A stretch of 8,504 bases of DNA from a virus (lineage: Duplodnaviria > Heunggongvirae > Uroviricota > Caudoviricetes). Below the pieces are notes generated by a model. That model was not told where the DNA came from. It was given only the letters and a program-made list of their open reading frames with translations, and did not search any database. Location: the IMG/VR virus record IMGVR_UViG_2609459840_000006, one strand, 5' to 3'. The translations under genes and the position numbers were made by a program. Shown piece after piece: positions 2,425 to 8,479 of this stretch (positions within the stretch are counted from its first letter, which is position 1; every line of letters begins with the position of its first letter).

Positions 2425-2640
2425 ATGAAATCCATGGATAAGTTAACAACGGGTGTCGCCTATGGCACCTCAGCAGGTAGTGCCGGTTACTGGTTTTTAC
2501 AGCTGCTCGATAAAGTCACGCCCTCACAGTGGGCAGCAATAGGTGTGCTGGGTAGCCTGGTATTTGGCCTGCTGACGTACCTGACAAACCTTTATTTCAA
2601 GATTAAAGAAGATAAGCGCAAGGCTGCGAGAGGTGAATAA
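2425..2640 (+). CDS. S: Class II holin (pinholin), phage 21 S-type, 71 aa with dual-start motif
   Basis: [28 protein letters not shown].. with Met1-Lys2-Ser3-Met4 dual start and two TMDs, close to S21 from memory. Strong SD gaggtgg upstream of the ATG at 2425. The track's start at 2380 is a TTG extension and was rejected. Confidence 0.88.
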
Positions 2641-3137
2641 TGCCTCCATCATTACGAAAAGCCGTTGCTGCTGCTATTGGTGGCGGAGCAATTGCTATAG
2701 CATCAGTGTTAATCACTGGCCCAAGTGGTAACGATGGTCTGGAAGGTGTCAGCTACATACCATACAAAGATATTGTTGGTGTATGGACTGTATGTCACGG
2801 GCATACAGGAAAAGACATCATGCTCGGTAAAACGTATACCAAAGCAGAATGCAAAGCCCTCCTGAATAAAGACCTTGCCACGGTCGCCAGACAAATTAAC
2901 CCGTACATAAAAGTTGATATACCGGAAACAACGCGCGGCGCTCTTTACTTGTTCGTTTACAACGTGGGCGCTGGCAATTTCAGAACATCGACGCTTCTTC
3001 GCAAAATAAACCAGGGCGATATCAAAGGCGCATGTGATCAGCTACGTCGCTGGACATATGCTGGCGGTAAGCAATGGAAAGGTCTCATGACTCGTCGTGA
3101 GATTGAGCGTGAAATCTGTTTGTGGGGTCAGCAATGA
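2640..3137 (+). CDS. R: SAR endolysin (phage 21 R-type lysozyme), 165 aa
   Basis: N-terminal Gly/Ala-rich signal-anchor-release segment ([20 protein letters not shown]) and catalytic residues at E35, D44, T50 as in R21. The ATG overlaps the holin stop (TAATG). Confidence 0.9.
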
Positions 3138-3601
3138 ACAGAGTAACCGCGATTATCTCCGCTCTGGTTATCTGCATCATCGTCTGCCTGTCATGGGCTG
3201 TTAATCATTACCGTGATAATGCAATCGCCTACAAAGAACAGCGCGATAACAAGGCCAGTGAACTGGAGAAGGCGAACGCCACCATTACTGACATGCAGCA
3301 GCGCCAGCGTGATGCTGATGCACTCGATGATAAATACACGAAGGAGTTAGCTGATGCGAAAGCTGAAAATGATGCTCTTCGGCGCAAGCTTGATAATGGT
3401 GGTCGGGTGCTCGTCAAAGGAAAATGCCCTGTGCCATCCTCAGCCGAAACCTCCAGCGCCTCCGGCATGGGCAATGATGCCACCGTCGAACTCTCTCCAG
3501 TTGCTGGACGAAACGTTCTCGGTATCCGGGACGGAATTATCCGCGACCAAACAGCACTGAGAACGCTTCAGGAATACATCAGGACGCAATGCCTTCGATG
3601 A
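3134..3601 (+). CDS. Rz: Rz i-spanin (inner-membrane spanin subunit), 155 aa
   Basis: [30 protein letters not shown].. is near-identical to the lambda Rz N-terminus, with one TMD and a coiled-coil periplasmic domain. The ATG at 3134 overlaps the R stop (ATGA); the track start at 3122 is GTG. Confidence 0.88.
3354..3560 (+). CDS. Rz1: Rz1 o-spanin lipoprotein, embedded in the +1 frame of Rz, 68 aa
   Basis: [19 protein letters not shown].. has a signal peptide with lipobox (VVGC) and a Pro-rich mature part ([16 protein letters not shown]). Strong SD aaggag 7 nt upstream of the ATG. Lies entirely inside Rz. Confidence 0.8.
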
Positions 3602-3775
3602 TAGCGATAATTTTACTCATCATCCTTCACATCTGGCTCTGTAGACAGGGTGGTGCTCACTTCTGGAGTGAATCCAGATTAAACATCTCATTGCTGATGC
3701 TTGATATTGAGCATTTTGCGCGCGGTAAGGGGCTGCGTTGAGATAAGAGCCAGTCATTACAAATACCAGGATTTA

Positions 3776-3801
3776 GCCTCGCATTCGCGGGGCTTTTTAT
3801 T
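3776..3801 (+). terminator. Rho-independent terminator downstream of the lysis cassette
   Basis: gcctcgc-attc-gcggggc (7-bp stem with one G.U pair) followed by tttttatt. Confidence 0.5.
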
Positions 3802-3807
3802 GCCATT

Positions 3808-3840
3808 ACAAAAGCCACTTCCTACAGAGTGGCTTTGATA
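3808..3840 (-). terminator. Rho-independent terminator for the leftward accessory operon
   Basis: aaagccact-tcctacag-agtggcttt; on the minus strand the 3' arm runs into cttttg. Confidence 0.45.
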
Positions 3841-3882
3841 ATGGCTTATACCCTACACGGGATAACTTAACTGATATCCCTT

Positions 3883-4047
3883 TTAAAGGATAAAGGTATT
3901 CAAGCCTGACACATCATGCGCTGTATCGTCGCCGTATTCCCGTATTAACAGAGACCGTAGCCCGACGGGGAACTCCTTCTGCGCGAGTGTGTGGGAATAA
4001 TCAAAAACGATGCACACCGGGGTTACCGGGTACACATATTTCATCAT
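3883..4047 (-). CDS. Hypothetical small protein, 54 aa (absent from the ORF track, apparently because of a length cutoff)
   Basis: Hand translation: MMKYVYPVTPVCIVFDYSHTLAQKEFPVGLRSLLIREYGDDTAHDVSGLNTFIL*. It lies 45 bp downstream of the ybcV-like stop and just upstream of the minus-strand terminator. The SD is weak. Confidence 0.3.
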   Translation of the reverse strand: MMKYVYPVTPVCIVFDYSHTLAQKEFPVGLRSLLIREYGDDTAHDVSGLNTFIL

Positions 4048-4092
4048 GCCAGCGAGTCCGGTTCTGGCACGGAAGAAACCGGACGTTATGAT

Positions 4093-4503
4093 TTAGTGCG
4101 GAAATATTTGTGTAGTGTTCTGAATGTTCTCAGTAAAGAGTAATGAATTATCAAAGGTATAGTAATACCTTTTGTTTTCGTGGATATTTGTAATCCATCT
4201 GAAAACCCCTGCTGTAGCAAGATTTTTCCTGTATTCGTAAAATGATAACTCTCCTGATTTGAATCCTTTTAAGGTGGCTTCTATAAGGCATTTATTTTTT
4301 GAAAATCTTACATTTACAACCTTACCCTGTCCTTTTATTAAAACCGTATTATCGTTTTCAAGAACAAGATGAATATTCTCTGTGGCTAAATAGTAAATGT
4401 AATGTGAGACATTGTGACGTTTTAGTTCAGAATAAAACCAGTGATAGTTTAAATTATTTCGCACTTTATCGAATATTTGTTTAAAAATGGCAACCTGAGC
4501 CAT
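4093..4503 (-). CDS. ybcV: DUF1398 / YbcV-like prophage protein, 136 aa from the second ATG
   Basis: [80 protein letters not shown] resembles E. coli DLP12 YbcV as I remember it (unverified). The ATG at 4503 has SD ggaagg; the upstream ATG at 4518 has none. Markedly AT-rich. Confidence 0.75.
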
Positions 4504-4559
4504 TGTAGTACCTTCCATGTGATATGAGGGGTGTAGTCTGCACGATTATCTAAATTGCT

Positions 4560-4793
4560 TCAATCTGGTCTGATCTGTTTTCTGAGCAATTCAGTAATGT
4601 CACTCTTTTCTTTGTTTGCTTCAGGAGAAACTCTTTTTTCTGAGCACAGTCTCCGGCGGCAGGCTTCAATGACCCAGGCTGAGAAATTCCCGGACCCTTT
4701 TTGATCAAGAGCGATGTTAATTTGTTCAATCATTTGGTTAGGAAAGCGGATGTTGCGGGTTGTTGTTCTGCGGGTTCTGTTCTTCGTTGACAT
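4560..4793 (-). CDS. Ribbon-helix-helix DNA-binding protein, DUF3950 / YlcI-like, 77 aa
   Basis: Basic N-terminal arm (KNRTRRTTTR), then a beta-strand (NIRFP), helix (NQMIEQINIALDQ), KGSGN turn and helix (FSAWVIEACRRRL): the Arc/MetJ/CopG RHH pattern. Resembles DLP12 YlcI from memory. ATG at 4793. Confidence 0.7.
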   Translation of the reverse strand: MSTKNRTRRTTTRNIRFPNQMIEQINIALDQKGSGNFSAWVIEACRRRLCSEKRVSPEANKEKSDITELLRKQIRPD

Positions 4794-4992
4794 GAGGTTG
4801 TCCCGTATTCAGTGTCGCTGATTTGTATTGTCTGAAGTTGTTTTTACGTTAAGTTGATGCAGATCAATTAATACGATACCTGCGTCATAATTGATTATTT
4901 GACGTGGTTTGATGGCGTAGATGCACGTTGTGACATGCAGATGATAATTATTATCATTTTGCGGGTCCTTTCCGGCGATCCGACAGGTTACG

Positions 4993-5004
4993 GGGCGGCG
5001 ACCT
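4993..5004. other. cosN 12-nt cohesive-end sequence (gggcggcgacct)
   Basis: Exact match to the lambda cohesive end GGGCGGCGACCT, preceded by ..aggttacg, the lambda right end. Confidence 0.8.
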
Positions 5005-5101
5005 CGCGGGTTTTCGCTATTTATGAAAATTTTCCGGTTTAAGGTGTTTCCGTTCTTCTTCGTCGTAACTTAATGTTTTTATTTAAAATACCCCCTGAAA
5101 A

Positions 5102-5156
5102 GAAAGGAAACGACAGGTGCTGAAAGCGAGCTTTTTGGCCTCTGTCGTTTCCTTTC
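5102..5156. repeat. cosB R-element inverted repeat (terminase small-subunit binding sites R2/R1)
   Basis: Perfect 15-bp inverted repeat gaaaggaaacgacag (5102-5116) / ctgtcgtttcctttc (5142-5156), separated by 25 bp; a related tttccgttcttcttcg lies at about 5047-5062 (R3-like). Confidence 0.6.
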
Positions 5157-5181
5157 TCTGTTTTTGTCCGTGGAATGAACA

Positions 5182-5727
5182 ATGGAAGTCAACAAAAAGC
5201 AGCTGGCTGACATTTTCGGTGCGAGTATCCGTACCATTCAGAACTGGCAGGAACAGGGAATGCCCGTTCTGCGAGGCGGTGGCAAGGGTAATGAGGTGCT
5301 TTATGACTCTGCCGCCGTCATAAAATGGTATGCCAAAAGGGATGCTGAAATTGAGAACGAAAAGCTGCGCCGGGAGGTTGAAGAACTGCGGCAGGCCAGC
5401 GAGGCAGATCTCCAGCCAGGGACTATTGAGTACGAACGCCATCGACTTACGCGTGCGCAGGCCGACGCACAGGAACTGAAGAATGCCAGAGACTCCGCTG
5501 AAGTGGTGGAAACCGCATTCTGTACTTTCGTGTTGTCGCGGATCGCAGGTGAAATTGCCAGTATTCTCGACGGGATCCCCCTGTCGGTGCAGCGGCGTTT
5601 TCCGGAACTGGAAAACCGACATGTTGATTTCCTGAAACGGGATATCATCAAAGCCATGAACAAAGCAGCCGCGCTGGATGAACTGATACCGGGGTTGCTG
5701 AGTGAATATATCGAACAGTCAGGTTAA
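5182..5727 (+). CDS. nu1: Terminase small subunit Nu1, 181 aa
   Basis: MEVNKKQLADIFGASIRTIQNWQEQGMPVLRGGGKGNEVLYDSAAVIKWY.. is essentially identical to lambda gpNu1 from memory, with a winged-HTH N-terminus. The 3' end overlaps the A start as in lambda. Confidence 0.95.
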   Translation: MEVNKKQLADIFGASIRTIQNWQEQGMPVLRGGGKGNEVLYDSAAVIKWYAKRDAEIENEKLRREVEELRQASEADLQPGTIEYERHRLTRAQADAQELKNARDSAEVVETAFCTFVLSRIAGEIASILDGIPLSVQRRFPELENRHVDFLKRDIIKAMNKAAALDELIPGLLSEYIEQSG

Positions 5728-7168
5728 CAGGCTGCGGCATTTTGTCCGCGCCGGGCTTCGCTCACTGTTCAGGCCGGAGCCACAGACCGCCGTTGAATGG
5801 GCGGATGCTAATTACTATCTCCCGAAAGAATCCGCATACCAGGAAGGGCGCTGGGAAACACTGCCCTTTCAGCGGGCCATCATGAATGCGATGGGCAGCG
5901 ACTACATCCGCGAGGTGAATGTGGTGAAGTCTGCCCGTGTTGGTTATTCCAAAATGCTGTTGGGTGTTTATGCCTACTTCATAGAGCATAAGCAGCGCAA
6001 CACACTTATCTGGTTGCCGACGGATGGTGATGCCGAGAACTTTATGAAAACCCACGTTGAGCCGACCATCCGCGATATTCCGTTGCTGCTGGCGCTGGCT
6101 CCGTGGTATGGCAAAAAGCACCGGGATAACACGCTCACCATGAAGCGTTTTTCCAATGGTCGTGGCTTCTGGTGCCTGGGCGGTAAAGCGGCAAAAAACT
6201 ACCGTGAAAAGTCGGTGGATGTGGCGGGGTATGATGAACTTGCTGCCTTTGATGAGGATATTGAACAGGAAGGCTCTCCGACGTTCCTTGGCGACAAACG
6301 TATTGAAGGCTCGGTCTGGCCAAAGTCCATCCGTGGCTCCACCCCCAAAGTGAGAGGTACCTGCCAGATTGAGCGTGCAGCCAGTGAATCCCCGCATTTT
6401 ATGCGTTTTCATGTTGCCTGTCCGCACTGCGGGGAGGAGCAGTACCTTAAATTTGGCGATAAAGAGACGTCGTTTGGCCTCAAATGGACGCCGGATGATC
6501 CCTCCAGCGTGTTTTATCTCTGCGAACATAATGCCTGCGTCATCCGCCAGCAGGAACTGGACTTCACTGATGCCCGTTATATCTGCGAAAAGACCGGGAT
6601 CTGGACCCGTGATGGCATTCTCTGGTTTTCGTCATCCGGTGAAGAGATTGAGCCGCCGGACAGCGTGACCTTTCACATCTGGACGGCGTACAGCCCGTTC
6701 ACCACCTGGGTGCAGATTGTCAAAGACTGGATGAAAACGAAAGGGGATACGGGAAAACGTAAAACCTTCGTAAACACCACGCTCGGTGAGACGTGGGAGG
6801 CGAAAATTGGCGAACGTCCGGATGCTGAAGTGATGGCAGAGCGGAAAGAGCATTATTCAGCGCCCGTTCCTGACCGTGTGGCTTACCTGACCGCCGGTAT
6901 CGACTCCCAGCTGGATCGCTACGAAATGCGCGTATGGGGATGGGGGCCGGGTGAGGAAAGCTGGCTGATTGACCGGCAGATTATTATGGGCCGCCACGAC
7001 GATGAACAGACGCTGCTGCGTGTGGATGAGGCCATCAATAAAACCTATACCCGCCGGAATGGTGCAGAAATGTCGGTATCCCGTATCTGCTGGGATACTG
7101 GCGGGATTGATCCGACCATTGTGTATGAACGCTCGAAAAAACATGGGCTGTTCCGGGTGATCCCATAA
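5702..7168 (+). pseudogene. A: Terminase large subunit A, truncated after codon 488 by IS186
   Basis: GTG start (as in lambda); MNISNSQVNRLRHFVRAGLRSLF... is near-identical to lambda gpA through ..KKHGLFRVIP, then TAA at 7166-7168 inside the IS186 terminal repeat. Lambda gpA is 641 aa, so about 150 C-terminal residues are missing from this reading frame. Confidence 0.9.
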
Positions 7169-7334: not shown

Positions 7335-8447
7335 TTAGTTCTTCTTTTCGGATCCGGCACTTCTGGGGGGGAAATCCAGCGATGGCTGGATTATGTCGTC
7401 AATTAAAAATGCGGCGAGTAGATTAGCAAATATCCACGCTTTCGCGAGTTCAGGTTCCTTTGCACGCAAAGCATCCAGGTGCAGCAAACTTTTGAGCCGC
7501 TTAAAAGCCAGTTCAATTTGCCATCGCAGACGGTAACAATCAGCCACTTGCTCTGCTGAATATTCATCTTCCGGTAATGATGTTAGCAATAGCACATGGC
7601 CCGCTGCTTCCAGCGTTTCCGCCTGAACTACTCGTCCTTTTCGACGATTCTCGCTGAGCAGTCGGGTTTTACTGATTAATGCTTTTTCGGGAGGAAGTGA
7701 TACGGCAATGAGACGTGCCGGAAAGGGAGCTCCGGCTTTTTTATTACCTGAATTGCCTATCATTACAGTGGTTTCACCGTTCTTACCGCAATCCAGCCCG
7801 CGCAGAAAACCCATCATGTCAAAGCGCATTCCTTCTGCAGTTAACCAGCGCAATCCTCGCCAGTGAACCCGGACGATATAATCAGCTTCTCCAAAAGCAA
7901 GTGAGCGGATACATTCGGGACGCGAACCGAATCCCCGGTCAGCAATGCGTATCTCGTCTGCCGTTTGCGCAAATCGGTCCAGCCGTTCAGCGTCTCTGCT
8001 GTCGGTTAGCTCAAAATCAGTGAACTGACAGGTATGAGGATCATATCCCATATGTAGTCGCCATTCAGCGCTGCCGCCCCCGGGCGCACTGATTGCTGTT
8101 CCATCGACAAGACGCAATCTCTTTCCGCTTGTACAACCCGTAACTGCGGCGCGTACAGCAAGTGTTTGTGCGGCAAGTATGCCAAACCAGTCGGCGGCAT
8201 TCCGCAGCCGCTTCAGGAGAGCCACGTCAGATAATGTTGCAACGTCATGGAGCTGAGCCCATGCAGTGACTTCACGTAATGACATCCCCCCGGGGCCGTA
8301 AGCCAGCCCCAGACGTAGCAGAGTTGCAGCATCACGAATTTCGCGGCGGCGGGTTAGAGCCCCGGCATTACGTGCCGAAGTATCCAGTTCTTCGGGCTTA
8401 CCAATATGGGCCAGAATTGCTGACCAGTTATCGTGAGAGTAATTCAT
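7335..8447 (-). CDS. IS186 transposase (IS4-family DDE transposase), 370 aa
   Basis: MNYSHDNWSAILAHIGKPEELDTSARNAGALTRRREIRD.. matches the IS186 transposase as I recall it. ATG at 8447; the track start at 8453 is GTG. Confidence 0.9.
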   Translation of the reverse strand: MNYSHDNWSAILAHIGKPEELDTSARNAGALTRRREIRDAATLLRLGLAYGPGGMSLREVTAWAQLHDVATLSDVALLKRLRNAADWFGILAAQTLAVRAAVTGCTSGKRLRLVDGTAISAPGGGSAEWRLHMGYDPHTCQFTDFELTDSRDAERLDRFAQTADEIRIADRGFGSRPECIRSLAFGEADYIVRVHWRGLRWLTAEGMRFDMMGFLRGLDCGKNGETTVMIGNSGNKKAGAPFPARLIAVSLPPEKALISKTRLLSENRRKGRVVQAETLEAAGHVLLLTSLPEDEYSAEQVADCYRLRWQIELAFKRLKSLLHLDALRAKEPELAKAWIFANLLAAFLIDDIIQPSLDFPPRSAGSEKKN

Positions 8448-8479
8448 CGGCACGTTAAATCATATCAGGCGTAATACCA

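Follow-up and report, generated by a model that had tools for sequence, protein, structure and literature searches.

The ynfO- and ydfO-type accessory genes between Rz and cos in a defective lambdoid prophage

The window, which is the whole 8,504-nucleotide stretch of DNA that was analysed, carries the known lambda-type ynfO–ydfO accessory genes, which are very common in prophages and yet uncharacterised. Both genes are real and under purifying selection, and they are separate mosaic modules, probably not a two-gene system. The best explanation, which as a whole we consider probable, is that the region is a variable accessory ("moron") slot that extends from the lysis cassette to cos of a defective lambdoid prophage. 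As the pair is already annotated in E. coli K-12 as ynfO–ydfO, the finding as first written is not new.

Lambda itself carries both genes, as do ~90% of complete E. coli genomes. Neither has an assigned function, and finding one would close a minor gap for the best-studied phage. Added here are four points: the two modules are independent, which makes the toxin-antitoxin idea unlikely; a 54-aa ORF downstream is not worth pursuing; the DUF1398 fold is without relatives among solved structures; and the YlcI homologue is absent from the lambda reference annotation. The features discussed below are as follows:

3589–3741, plus strand: 50-codon rightward ORF overlapping the end of Rz (RefSeq CDS "hypothetical protein"; PHROG 11822)
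3775–3794, plus strand: canonical intrinsic terminator after Rz, for rightward transcripts (terminator scan)
3802–3845, minus strand: hairpin and U-tract (inverted repeat with 18-nt arms; dG -24.9 kcal/mol, z -5.6)
3883–4047, minus strand: 54-codon open frame, probably not a gene (no family match; frame broken by indels in relatives)
3917–4035, no strand assigned: conserved non-coding element of ~120 bp, bor upstream/promoter region (shared with lambda, DLP12 and 933W)
4093–4503, minus strand: ydfO/ybcV-type DUF1398 gene, 136 aa (ORF and Pfam DUF1398)
4560–4793, minus strand: ynfO/ylcI-type gene, 77 aa (ORF, Pfam DUF3950 and NCBIfam YlcI_YnfO_N)
4563–4579, plus strand: PdhR-box homologue (homologous to the DLP12/lambda sequence in an alignment)
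4863–4895, no strand assigned: candidate operator, a 13-bp inverted repeat, ATCAATTAATACG / CGTCATAATTGAT (inverted-repeat search)
4993–5004, plus strand: cosN, the lambda cohesive-end sequence GGGCGGCGACCT (exact match; the DE3 record annotates the cos site)

Gene identities and separate inheritance

The preliminary description of this region placed two leftward genes here, opposing the late operon, and named their families rightly. The 77-aa product matches Pfam DUF3950 (PF13132) with an E of 4.9e-21 and 74.8 bits (cutoff 25) and NCBIfam YlcI_YnfO_N (NF041551) with 35.7 bits (cutoff 30), both above the curated HMM cutoffs, and it is 96% identical to K-12 YnfO. The 136-aa product matches Pfam DUF1398 (PF07166) with an E of 3.3e-43 and 147 bits (cutoff 22), covers positions 1–119 of the 119 in that profile and is 75–77% identical to YdfO/YbcV. 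Its start at 4503 is favoured by the family alignment and by YdfO, while the mechanical ORF extends to 4518. The DUF1398 gene is AT-rich, as described, with a GC content of 0.32–0.35 against ~0.50 in the flanks. It was also correct that the families lack an assigned function: ynfO and ydfO were still listed as uncharacterised in a 2024 y-ome paper (PMC11551758), and a literature search found no function for ybcV, ydfO, ynfO, ylcI, DUF1398 or DUF3950.

Both ORFs are intact and have identical counterparts in complete prophages and the phage isolate Kati. In an assembly collection, 7,836 blocks are indexed as containing the exact 77-aa protein, and the region is matched in 4,898 of 5,426 complete E. 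coli genomes. For DUF1398, dN/dS is 0.12–0.37 and distinct codon changes number 26 synonymous to 36 nonsynonymous; for YnfO they number 14 to 10, which is comparable to Nu1 (31:19). The 54-aa ORF has 5 synonymous to 16 nonsynonymous changes, and it is these values, set against each other, that identify ynfO and the DUF1398 gene as real genes.

The unit had been thought to differ from what lambda carries at this place. It does not, as lambda, DLP12 and Qin all carry it. In lambda and DLP12, the slot likewise lies between Rz and cos and the order is bor – lambdap78 (ybcV) – lambdap79 (ybcW) – ylcI – cos – nu1, where lambdap78 is the DUF1398 gene and the YlcI/YnfO homologue of lambda/DE3 is an unannotated frame of 64 aa. 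Window positions 4631–5300 are 97% identical to lambda, cos and nu1 included, and positions 3917–4576 are 82% identical. These blocks break inside the 3′ end of ynfO (4577–4630), at the place where a 610-bp insert carries lambdap79 in lambda. The DUF1398 proteins are 77% identical, the N-terminal 50 residues of YlcI are nearly identical, and the ~120-bp element downstream of the DUF1398 gene is shared. The YnfO tail comprises 28 residues in the window instead of the 15 in lambda and DLP12, because the 610-bp lambdap79/ybcW insert is missing. In addition, the promoter hexamers of the ~120-bp element are degraded in the window, unlike those of lambda and DLP12.

The window is without bor and without the ybcW/lambdap79 insert, as is K-12 Qin, where ynfO (b4533) and ydfO (b1549) have the same order, orientation and spacing and adjoin the Nu1 homologue, nohA. 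Here, a 234-bp gene, a 57-bp gap and a 411-bp gene correspond to a window gap of 56 bp, and one continuous block of 91% nucleotide identity covers window positions 5300–4055. Qin differs in that the DUF1398 allele of the window is only 75% identical to YdfO. Downstream of the DUF1398 gene there is gnsB in Qin, as opposed to the bor-upstream element and terminators in the window, and the lysis genes to the left in the window are DLP12-like, not Qin-like.

Independence of the two genes is seen in a neighbourhood sample of 79 viral loci in which the YnfO N-terminus is identical. The genes form direct pairs in 37 of these, are split by the rightward lambdap79/ybcW in 20, and about a quarter (~20) are without DUF1398, these being counts of loci and not of independent events, as close relatives make up most of the viral and genomic samples. 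In all loci of this sample with upstream sequence, Nu1 is the divergent neighbour of ynfO. In the Stx1 phage YYZ-2008, YnfO is found beside an unrelated HNH/TerS/TerL module, and in P4-like elements of Xenorhabdus a YlcI-like gene is divergent from a primase operon, both without DUF1398. Conversely, DUF1398 is found by itself on a Pseudocitrobacter chromosome and, at 20% identity, in the corresponding slot of a Stx-like prophage. The pairing of an RHH regulator with an effector, which underlies the toxin-antitoxin and abortive-infection reading, is thus not a conserved one in this survey.

Transcription and the remainder of the slot

The two genes had been described as an operon, a term that was not borne out: they lie in different homology blocks, and a consensus scan found no good sigma-70 promoter on the minus strand upstream of either. 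The best minus-strand matrix scores are 6.3 and 7.8 bits, compared with 9.3 for lambda Pbor using the same matrix. The leftward terminator that had been proposed is borne out as a strong hairpin with a U-tract at 3802–3845, located 250–290 nt downstream of the DUF1398 stop codon, although the terminator scan did not call it. It is likely to be an intrinsic terminator of leftward transcripts, judging by its fold. Facing it is the plus-strand terminator at 3775–3794, which has an 8-bp stem with 6 GC pairs, followed by TTTTTATT, and a fold z of -3.0. Minus-strand orientation within the late operon, a GC content of 0.32–0.35 and the hairpin with its U-tract are features of a moron. An accessory role with expression in lysogens is plausible.

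The preliminary description also counted a 54-aa ORF at 3883–4047. The open frame exists, but the evidence goes against its being a gene. It matches no family in Pfam, PHROGs, NCBIfam or PADLOC, it has no RefSeq annotation, indels interrupt its frame in lambda and DLP12, and neither it nor the conserved element has a period-3 pattern. Instead, the frame spans the conserved non-coding element and a recombination junction at ~3917, and it is most likely not a gene.

The ~120-bp element is present in 432 phage records, mostly at 80–93% identity. It lies just upstream of bor in 933W, and a promoter is annotated at it in the HK629 record. Promoter-like hexamers accompany bor in 42 of 44 loci, while degenerate hexamers accompany its absence in 131 of 132. 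The window copy is of the "bor-less" form, with the degraded hexamers CGGTCT / TACGGC. Folding of both strands of the element gave z values of -0.66 and +0.32, which are not unusual and give no support to a structured RNA. As had been stated, a bor-like lipoprotein is absent: tblastn with lambda Bor found no match in the window at E 10, and of Bor/Iss only the bor upstream element remains between Rz and cos. Downstream of the DUF1398 gene there would then be no third gene, only a promoter-degraded copy of the bor-upstream region, followed by the terminator hairpin.

The 50-codon ORF that overlaps the end of Rz matches PHROG 11822, a family of unknown function, with an E of 1.8e-36. It is present in only some related loci and has 2 synonymous to 9 nonsynonymous codon changes; its coding status is doubtful. 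Across the whole window, Rfam gave only chance-level matches, and no tRNA genes were found.

Possible roles of YnfO and the DUF1398 protein

YnfO is a basic protein of 77 aa with a pI of 10.6. It is divided into a conserved part (residues ~1–50), comprising an N-terminal arm and a putative ribbon-helix-helix (RHH) core, and a variable C-terminal tail. The sequence pattern is Arc-like, with a basic arm, a short strand (NIRFP), a helix, a G-x-G-N-x-S turn and a second helix. Size, basic arm and strand-helix-turn-helix pattern, including a G-x-x-N/S-x-S turn, are shared with the RHH repressors Arc, Mnt and CopG (P22 immI and plasmid pMV158), although this is a likeness of sequence, without a significant sequence or profile match. 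In hhalign, TRNIRFP of YnfO was set on the QFNLRWP strand of Arc in the right register (E 0.017, probability 2.6%), and there is a weak PHROG match to a HicB-like RHH region (E 0.007). Alignments to Mnt and CopG were insignificant; among the three comparison sequences, the verified one was that of Arc. No RHH match was significant in PDB (phmmer and hmmsearch with YnfO and two family alignments), and five family members found none in Pfam at E up to 10. The RHH assignment in the preliminary description is accordingly sustained by the pattern and not by Pfam, PDB profile searches or hhalign; the fold is plausible. A trivial 15-bp tandem repeat, the one found, lies within the part of ynfO that encodes the arm.

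The pI, the placement on the Arc strand and the weak HicB-like match point to a DNA binder, and YnfO would most likely be a dimeric, DNA-binding regulator of transcription. The inverted repeat at 4863–4895 sits 70–100 bp upstream of the ynfO start codon. The repeat is identical in lambda and not conserved upstream of the YYZ-2008 homologue, and is a candidate operator and nothing more. The gene points leftward, starting at the packaging end and running opposite to the late operon, so that its product would come mostly from the prophage or from the early phase of infection.

The DUF1398 protein is a soluble, basic protein of 16 kDa (pI 9.4) with two alpha-alpha-beta-beta-beta repeats. An AF2 model, built on a family alignment, matches the solved structure of YdfO (2HH8). 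A fold search found no relatives among solved structures and a BFVD search found nothing; the DUF1398 fold counts as an orphan. Distant relatives are few: phmmer against 1.84 billion representatives gave only 189 matches, mostly enterobacterial fragments, and a profile word-index search gave 26. Two labels, "envelope protein" and "head protein", were considered and set aside: the protein is soluble and NMR-solved, it has neither a signal peptide nor a membrane segment, and no evidence was found in favour of either label.

No conserved catalytic set is seen in the family alignment. An ASKA clone of ybcV was recovered, with a glycogen-excess phenotype, and overexpression is therefore tolerated (PMC2853380). 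YdfO was produced for NMR (2HH8). Together with the orphan fold, these observations suggest a non-toxic binder, and DUF1398 would most likely bind a host or phage macromolecule, although "binds something" is a weak mechanism. Further, ybcV::kan serves as a neutral marker (PMC3945230) and lambdap78 is non-essential (PMC10695390).

Host control of the gene is documented for ybcV. In DLP12, PdhR binds a PdhR box between ybcV and ybcW, and ybcV mRNA is down 10-fold in a pdhR mutant (PMC7660256). Expression of the H-NS-interacting T4 MotB results in >1000-fold up-regulation (PMC7827196). In the window, the PdhR-box homologue at 4563–4579 lies within the 3′ end of ynfO, 60–76 bp upstream of the DUF1398 start codon. 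It may be part of a separate DUF1398 promoter region and, by homology, could act as a PdhR box in this prophage. With this box upstream and the AT-rich DNA, expression of DUF1398 is probably its own and host-controlled, and not YnfO-dependent.

Besides the accessory slot, three other readings were weighed. In the first, the functional link of YnfO is with the packaging end of the phage rather than with DUF1398. As a small DNA-binding protein, it would act on the cos-proximal region or the first packaging genes, for example by repressing stray transcription into the terminase genes in a lysogen or by interfering with cos DNA of superinfecting relatives, and DUF1398 would be unrelated cargo. We regard this as unlikely. 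The ynfO gene is divergent from the first packaging gene in all loci with upstream sequence, whether lambda Nu1/cos or HNH/TerS/TerL. In the window, ynfO and nu1 diverge around cos, with cosN 200 bp from the ynfO start codon, and the first 54 ynfO codons fall within the cos-nu1 block that is 97% identical to lambda. The Xenorhabdus satellite homologue is likewise divergent from a long operon, and capsid-forming PICIs with TerS/TerL of their own are listed as having YlcI/YnfO proteins (PMC13612085). This linkage can, however, be explained as hitch-hiking within a recently exchanged block. Upstream of the gene, the lambda-type and YYZ-2008 contexts share no conserved DNA and homology begins exactly at the ATG, so that the two have no operator in common. 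Minimal cos fragments are known to be packaged even when this region is absent in cis, and YnfO is missing from a Stx-like prophage whose terminase is of the Nu1 family. A bolder version has a slim chance of being right. In lambdoid phages whose terminases are unrelated, YlcI/YnfO would be a position-locked, small DNA-binding regulator at the boundary of the lysis/accessory and packaging regions, and it would have a similar divergent position in P4-like satellites. Acting from the prophage, it would control transcription into the packaging genes or the fate of cos DNA that arrives with related phages. If true, a gene that lacks annotation in the lambda reference genome would have a control or exclusion function that is new and independent of immunity.

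The second reading, to which we also give little weight, is that both genes are decaying cargo, silent relics without a current role. The prophage is indeed defective, as terminase A is cut by IS186 (the ORF ends at 7168 beside the IS186 transposase) and IS1 occupies 1–750. The weak promoter scores, the degraded hexamers of the bor element, and AT-rich DNA that is up-regulated only on expression of an H-NS-interacting protein (PMC7827196) agree with decay. Against it stand the intact ORFs, with identical copies in complete prophages and in phage Kati, and family-wide purifying selection. DUF1398 keeps to this slot even where identity is down to 20%, and this speaks for usefulness over the long term.

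The third reading, a type II toxin-antitoxin or abortive-infection pair, is very improbable. Here, YnfO would be an RHH antitoxin and autorepressor, its C-terminal tail neutralising a DUF1398 toxin encoded downstream. Prophage accessory slots are often home to defence genes, the tail varies with the downstream content, and a small basic, putative RHH protein, a 56-bp gap and a 136-aa protein on the same strand resemble the order and spacing of RHH-antitoxin operons of the ParD, RelB and HicB types. Unlike in those systems, there is no co-inheritance of the partners. In lambda and DLP12 they are separated by a rightward gene, and a different, shorter YlcI tail accompanies a 77%-identical DUF1398. 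Separation of the modules and tolerated overexpression of YbcV/YdfO together argue against a toxin-antitoxin pair, as do the use of ybcV::kan as a neutral marker, the dispensability of lambdap78 and a fold unlike any known toxin. No toxin family was matched. The PADLOC-DB 2.0 defence models had no match to the 77-aa, 54-aa and 50-aa products, and for DUF1398 the sole match, Csx23, is at chance level (E 0.023, 12.7 bits). In the 37 of 79 loci where ynfO and the DUF1398 gene have the same orientation and lie ~56 bp apart, co-transcription and a functional link are still conceivable.

Layout of the region and its counterparts in lambda and K-12

The window is an 8.5-kb piece of a lambdoid E. coli prophage, which is defective since its terminase gene is truncated at IS186, IS1 lies at its left and related genomes match it only as far as 7164. 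The terminase large-subunit ORF ends at residue 488 of about 641, adjoining the IS186 transposase, and this junction may be strain-specific. The region under study, 3598–4960, lies between Rz/Rz1 and cosN.

Features of the window
1 to about 750: IS1, left flank of the porin gene
754–1836, minus: intact OmpC/NmpC-type porin gene (360 aa), upstream of the lysis cassette
2380–2640: P21-type holin
2640–3137: lysozyme
3122–3601: Rz
3354–3560: Rz1
3883–4047, minus: 54-aa ORF
4503–4093, minus: DUF1398 gene (136 aa)
4793–4560, minus: ynfO (77 aa)
4993–5004: cosN GGGCGGCGACCT
5182–5727: nu1
5702–7168: terminase A gene, truncated beside the IS186 transposase
7335–8453, minus: IS186 transposase

The preliminary description had placed three leftward ORFs in this accessory slot, and all were located there, on the minus strand between the lysis genes and cos. 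It also named both larger families correctly. Pfam DUF3950 (E 4.9e-21) and NCBIfam YlcI_YnfO_N were hit by the 77-aa product (YnfO). For the 136-aa product the hits were Pfam DUF1398 (E 3.3e-43) and, among solved structures, YdfO 2HH8 (E 2.9e-67); its gene is AT-rich (GC 0.32–0.35). The window has no Bor homologue, as had been noted. Lambda, which was said to carry a different unit here, has both a DUF1398 gene and a YlcI/YnfO homologue in the same place. The lambda/DE3 record runs Rz, bor (minus), lambdap78 (minus), lambdap79 (plus), cos, nu1, where lambdap78 is the DUF1398 protein, mis-called 'putative envelope protein'. The ORF listing of this locus includes a 64-aa minus-strand ORF (MSTKNRTRRTTTRNIRFPNQMIEQINIALEQKGSGNFSAWVIEACRRRL..., 3742–3936) between lambdap79 and cos, which is without annotation there and in the lambda reference J02459 (complement of about 48,112–48,306). 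It is lambda's YlcI/YnfO homologue and sits 200 bp left of cosN; the identical protein is annotated YlcI in K-12.

Lambda is 97% identical to window 4631–5300, a block of the first 54 ynfO codons, cos and nu1, and 82% identical to 3917–4576, which comprises DUF1398 and 176 bp downstream; about 610 bp with lambdap79 are inserted between the two blocks. The order in K-12 DLP12 is that of lambda (borD, ybcV, ybcW, ylcI, nohD), whereas K-12 Qin has that of the window (nohA, ynfO, ydfO), with equal gene lengths and spacing. The window YnfO is 96% identical to K-12 YnfO; for the DUF1398 protein, identity is 75% with YdfO and 77% with YbcV. Given the Qin order and spacing and the YnfO and YdfO identities, the region is the ynfO–ydfO pair of textbook cryptic prophages, and its genes are already known.

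Several commensal E. coli chromosomes carry the region at 100% identity (RefSeq labels 'DUF1398 domain-containing protein' and 'YlcI/YnfO family protein'), and the isolated phage Kati carries it at 99.4%; 4,898 of 5,426 complete E. coli genomes match some part of it. The porin gene is the counterpart of K-12 nmpC, there disrupted by IS5. Since a gene also occupies that position in Kati, this is likely a lysogenic-conversion porin.

The 54-aa frame and the bor upstream element

Codon constraint was assessed by counting distinct codon changes across all copies fetched.

Distinct codon changes
YnfO: synonymous 14, nonsynonymous 10
DUF1398: synonymous 26, nonsynonymous 36
Nu1: synonymous 31, nonsynonymous 19
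54-aa ORF: synonymous 5, nonsynonymous 16
Plus-strand 50-aa ORF (3589–3741): synonymous 2, nonsynonymous 9

Ratios like those of the 54-aa and 50-aa ORFs are expected of unconstrained sequence; DUF1398 alleles have a pairwise dN/dS of 0.12–0.37. Indels interrupt the 54-aa frame in lambda and DLP12, variable columns in its conserved part lack period-3 bias (15/14/14) and no family match was found in the four libraries searched. From the codon changes, indels, flat periodicity and missing match it was concluded that the 54-aa ORF, proposed as a third small gene, is in all likelihood not a gene. The 50-codon ORF spans the Rz stop codon and is recorded in RefSeq as WP_001139678.1 and grouped in PHROG 11822. 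It is found in some related loci only, and this patchy presence, together with its codon ratio, suggests that it may be an annotation artefact.

Under the 54-aa ORF lies an element of some 120 bp (roughly 3917–4035) that 432 phage records, 933W and many Stx phages among them, share at 80–93% identity. It is directly upstream of bor in 933W, lambda and DLP12, and the HK629 record annotates a promoter within it (TGGACA-N15-TACAAT). Among the loci compared here, which are non-independent samples, bor was present in 42 of 44 with promoter-like hexamers and absent from 131 of 132 with degenerate ones (CGGTCT/TACGGC in the window). Because hexamer state tracks bor and the element lies beside it, the stretch from DUF1398 to the terminator is read as the upstream region of bor, without bor itself and with its promoter degraded. 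Neither unusual RNA folding, on either strand, nor an Rfam match was found within the element. The minus-strand terminator reported at 3840–3808 was recovered as a long hairpin with a U-tract at 3802–3845 (dG -24.9 kcal/mol, z -5.6), opposed by a canonical plus-strand terminator at 3775–3794. The element is common, in two allelic states, to lambda, Stx, 933W-type and Salmonella SPN3UB phages. The form without bor stays conserved even across dissimilar phages, for which a dead promoter alone is an insufficient explanation.

The two products and their neighbourhoods

YnfO is strongly basic (pI 10.6), and its conserved core has an Arc-type ribbon-helix-helix (RHH)-like pattern, with hhalign setting TRNIRFP on Arc QFNLRWP. 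No significant RHH match was obtained in any profile or sequence search or hhalign run, the lone hint being a PHROG HicB-like match (E 0.007); an RHH fold is likely but unproven. A 15-bp tandem repeat (2.1 copies, 4754–4783) encodes the Arg/Thr-rich N-terminal arm (RTRRTTTRN). The DUF1398 protein, basic and soluble, lacks a signal peptide, and its alignment has no conserved catalytic-type residue set. The labels 'envelope' and 'head protein' were rejected for it, as no support was found. No PADLOC model matched any of the products.

In 79 IMG/VR loci whose YnfO N-termini are identical, DUF1398 was sought within 3.5 kb. It lies directly downstream in 37, beyond a lambdap79 insert in 20, and is absent in about 20, whose cargo differs, for example a cold-shock gene or a 133-aa ORF that resembles PerC on visual inspection. 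At all surveyed loci whose upstream sequence was covered, the gene divergent from YnfO is Nu1. A main rival reading, in which YnfO acts at the packaging end or in exclusion, draws on this constancy. In Stx1 phage YYZ-2008, a YnfO homologue without DUF1398 has Rz on one side and an unrelated HNH/TerS/TerL packaging module on the other. There, homology to the window comprises only ynfO codons 1–47, from the ATG exactly, and the 120-bp element. The YnfO C-terminal tail varies with the junction. Xenorhabdus P4-like elements have 53–56% identical YnfO homologues divergent from the primase operon (integrase, AlpA-like, BRO/Ant-like and primase roles being assigned by eye from ORF translations), and in these integrative elements the 60-aa YlcI-like gene is the sole gene on its strand. 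The family is also listed in PICIs in a paper on Enterobacter satellites (PMC13612085).

DUF1398 likewise occurs alone. An Stx-like prophage has a 20%-identical gene in the same Rz-to-Nu1 slot without YnfO, and more distant genes stand beside an aryl-polyene cluster in Pseudocitrobacter. Lone DUF1398 genes in Pseudocitrobacter and one JGI contig, just after a phosphopantetheinyl-transferase gene in an aryl-polyene-type cluster, argue that the family is not confined to phages; the Pseudocitrobacter homologues have a hydrophobic N-terminal extension. Near-identical YlcI/DUF1398 'homologues' in unrelated taxa (Cohnella, an Arcanobacterium 'plasmid', Pedobacter, Streptomyces, Staphylococcus and a spider) are on contigs of about 3.5 kb (many from ENA) or 48.5 kb. 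Such contigs resemble lambda DNA used as a control (the 3.6-kb nanopore amplicon or a spike-in of the whole phage), so that both families seem taxonomically more widespread in databases than they are.

Overall, the evidence says that YnfO and DUF1398 are separate mosaic modules, and the preferred reading is that the moron slot from lysis genes to cos holds two accessory genes independent of each other. YnfO would probably be a small regulator that binds DNA and is anchored to the packaging end, and the DUF1398 product probably a binding protein under host control.

Expression and dispensability

The other main rival is that both genes are silent relics. No convincing sigma-70 promoter was found on the minus strand upstream of ynfO or the DUF1398 gene. 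Published work offers hints on expression. PdhR bound near ynfO/ydfO as well as in the ybcV–ybcW interval, and ybcV mRNA was 10-fold lower in a pdhR mutant (PMC7660256); a box homologous to the PdhR site lies at window 4563–4579. Expression of T4 MotB, which is H-NS-interacting, raised ybcV and ybcW >1000-fold in BL21(DE3) (PMC7827196), and ybcV was increased in a sabinene-tolerant strain (PMC7181518). As to dispensability and toxicity, lambdap78 was non-essential by CRISPRi (PMC10695390), ybcV::kan is in use as a neutral marker (PMC3945230), and ybcV overexpression was tolerated, since an ASKA clone could be obtained and showed excess glycogen (PMC2853380). A toxin-antitoxin or abortive-infection pair, the regulator-effector logic first suggested, is least likely: adjacent at 37 of the 79 loci, the two genes are elsewhere split or found without each other.

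It was correctly remarked that neither family has an assigned function, ynfO and ydfO being still uncharacterised in the 2024 y-ome paper (PMC11551758). The gene lambdap79 (ybcW), which parts ylcI from the DUF1398 gene at 3371–3577 of the lambda/DE3 locus and is absent from the window, is mentioned six times in a September 2026 bioRxiv preprint on an NADase defence domain ('NIR', DUF4062).
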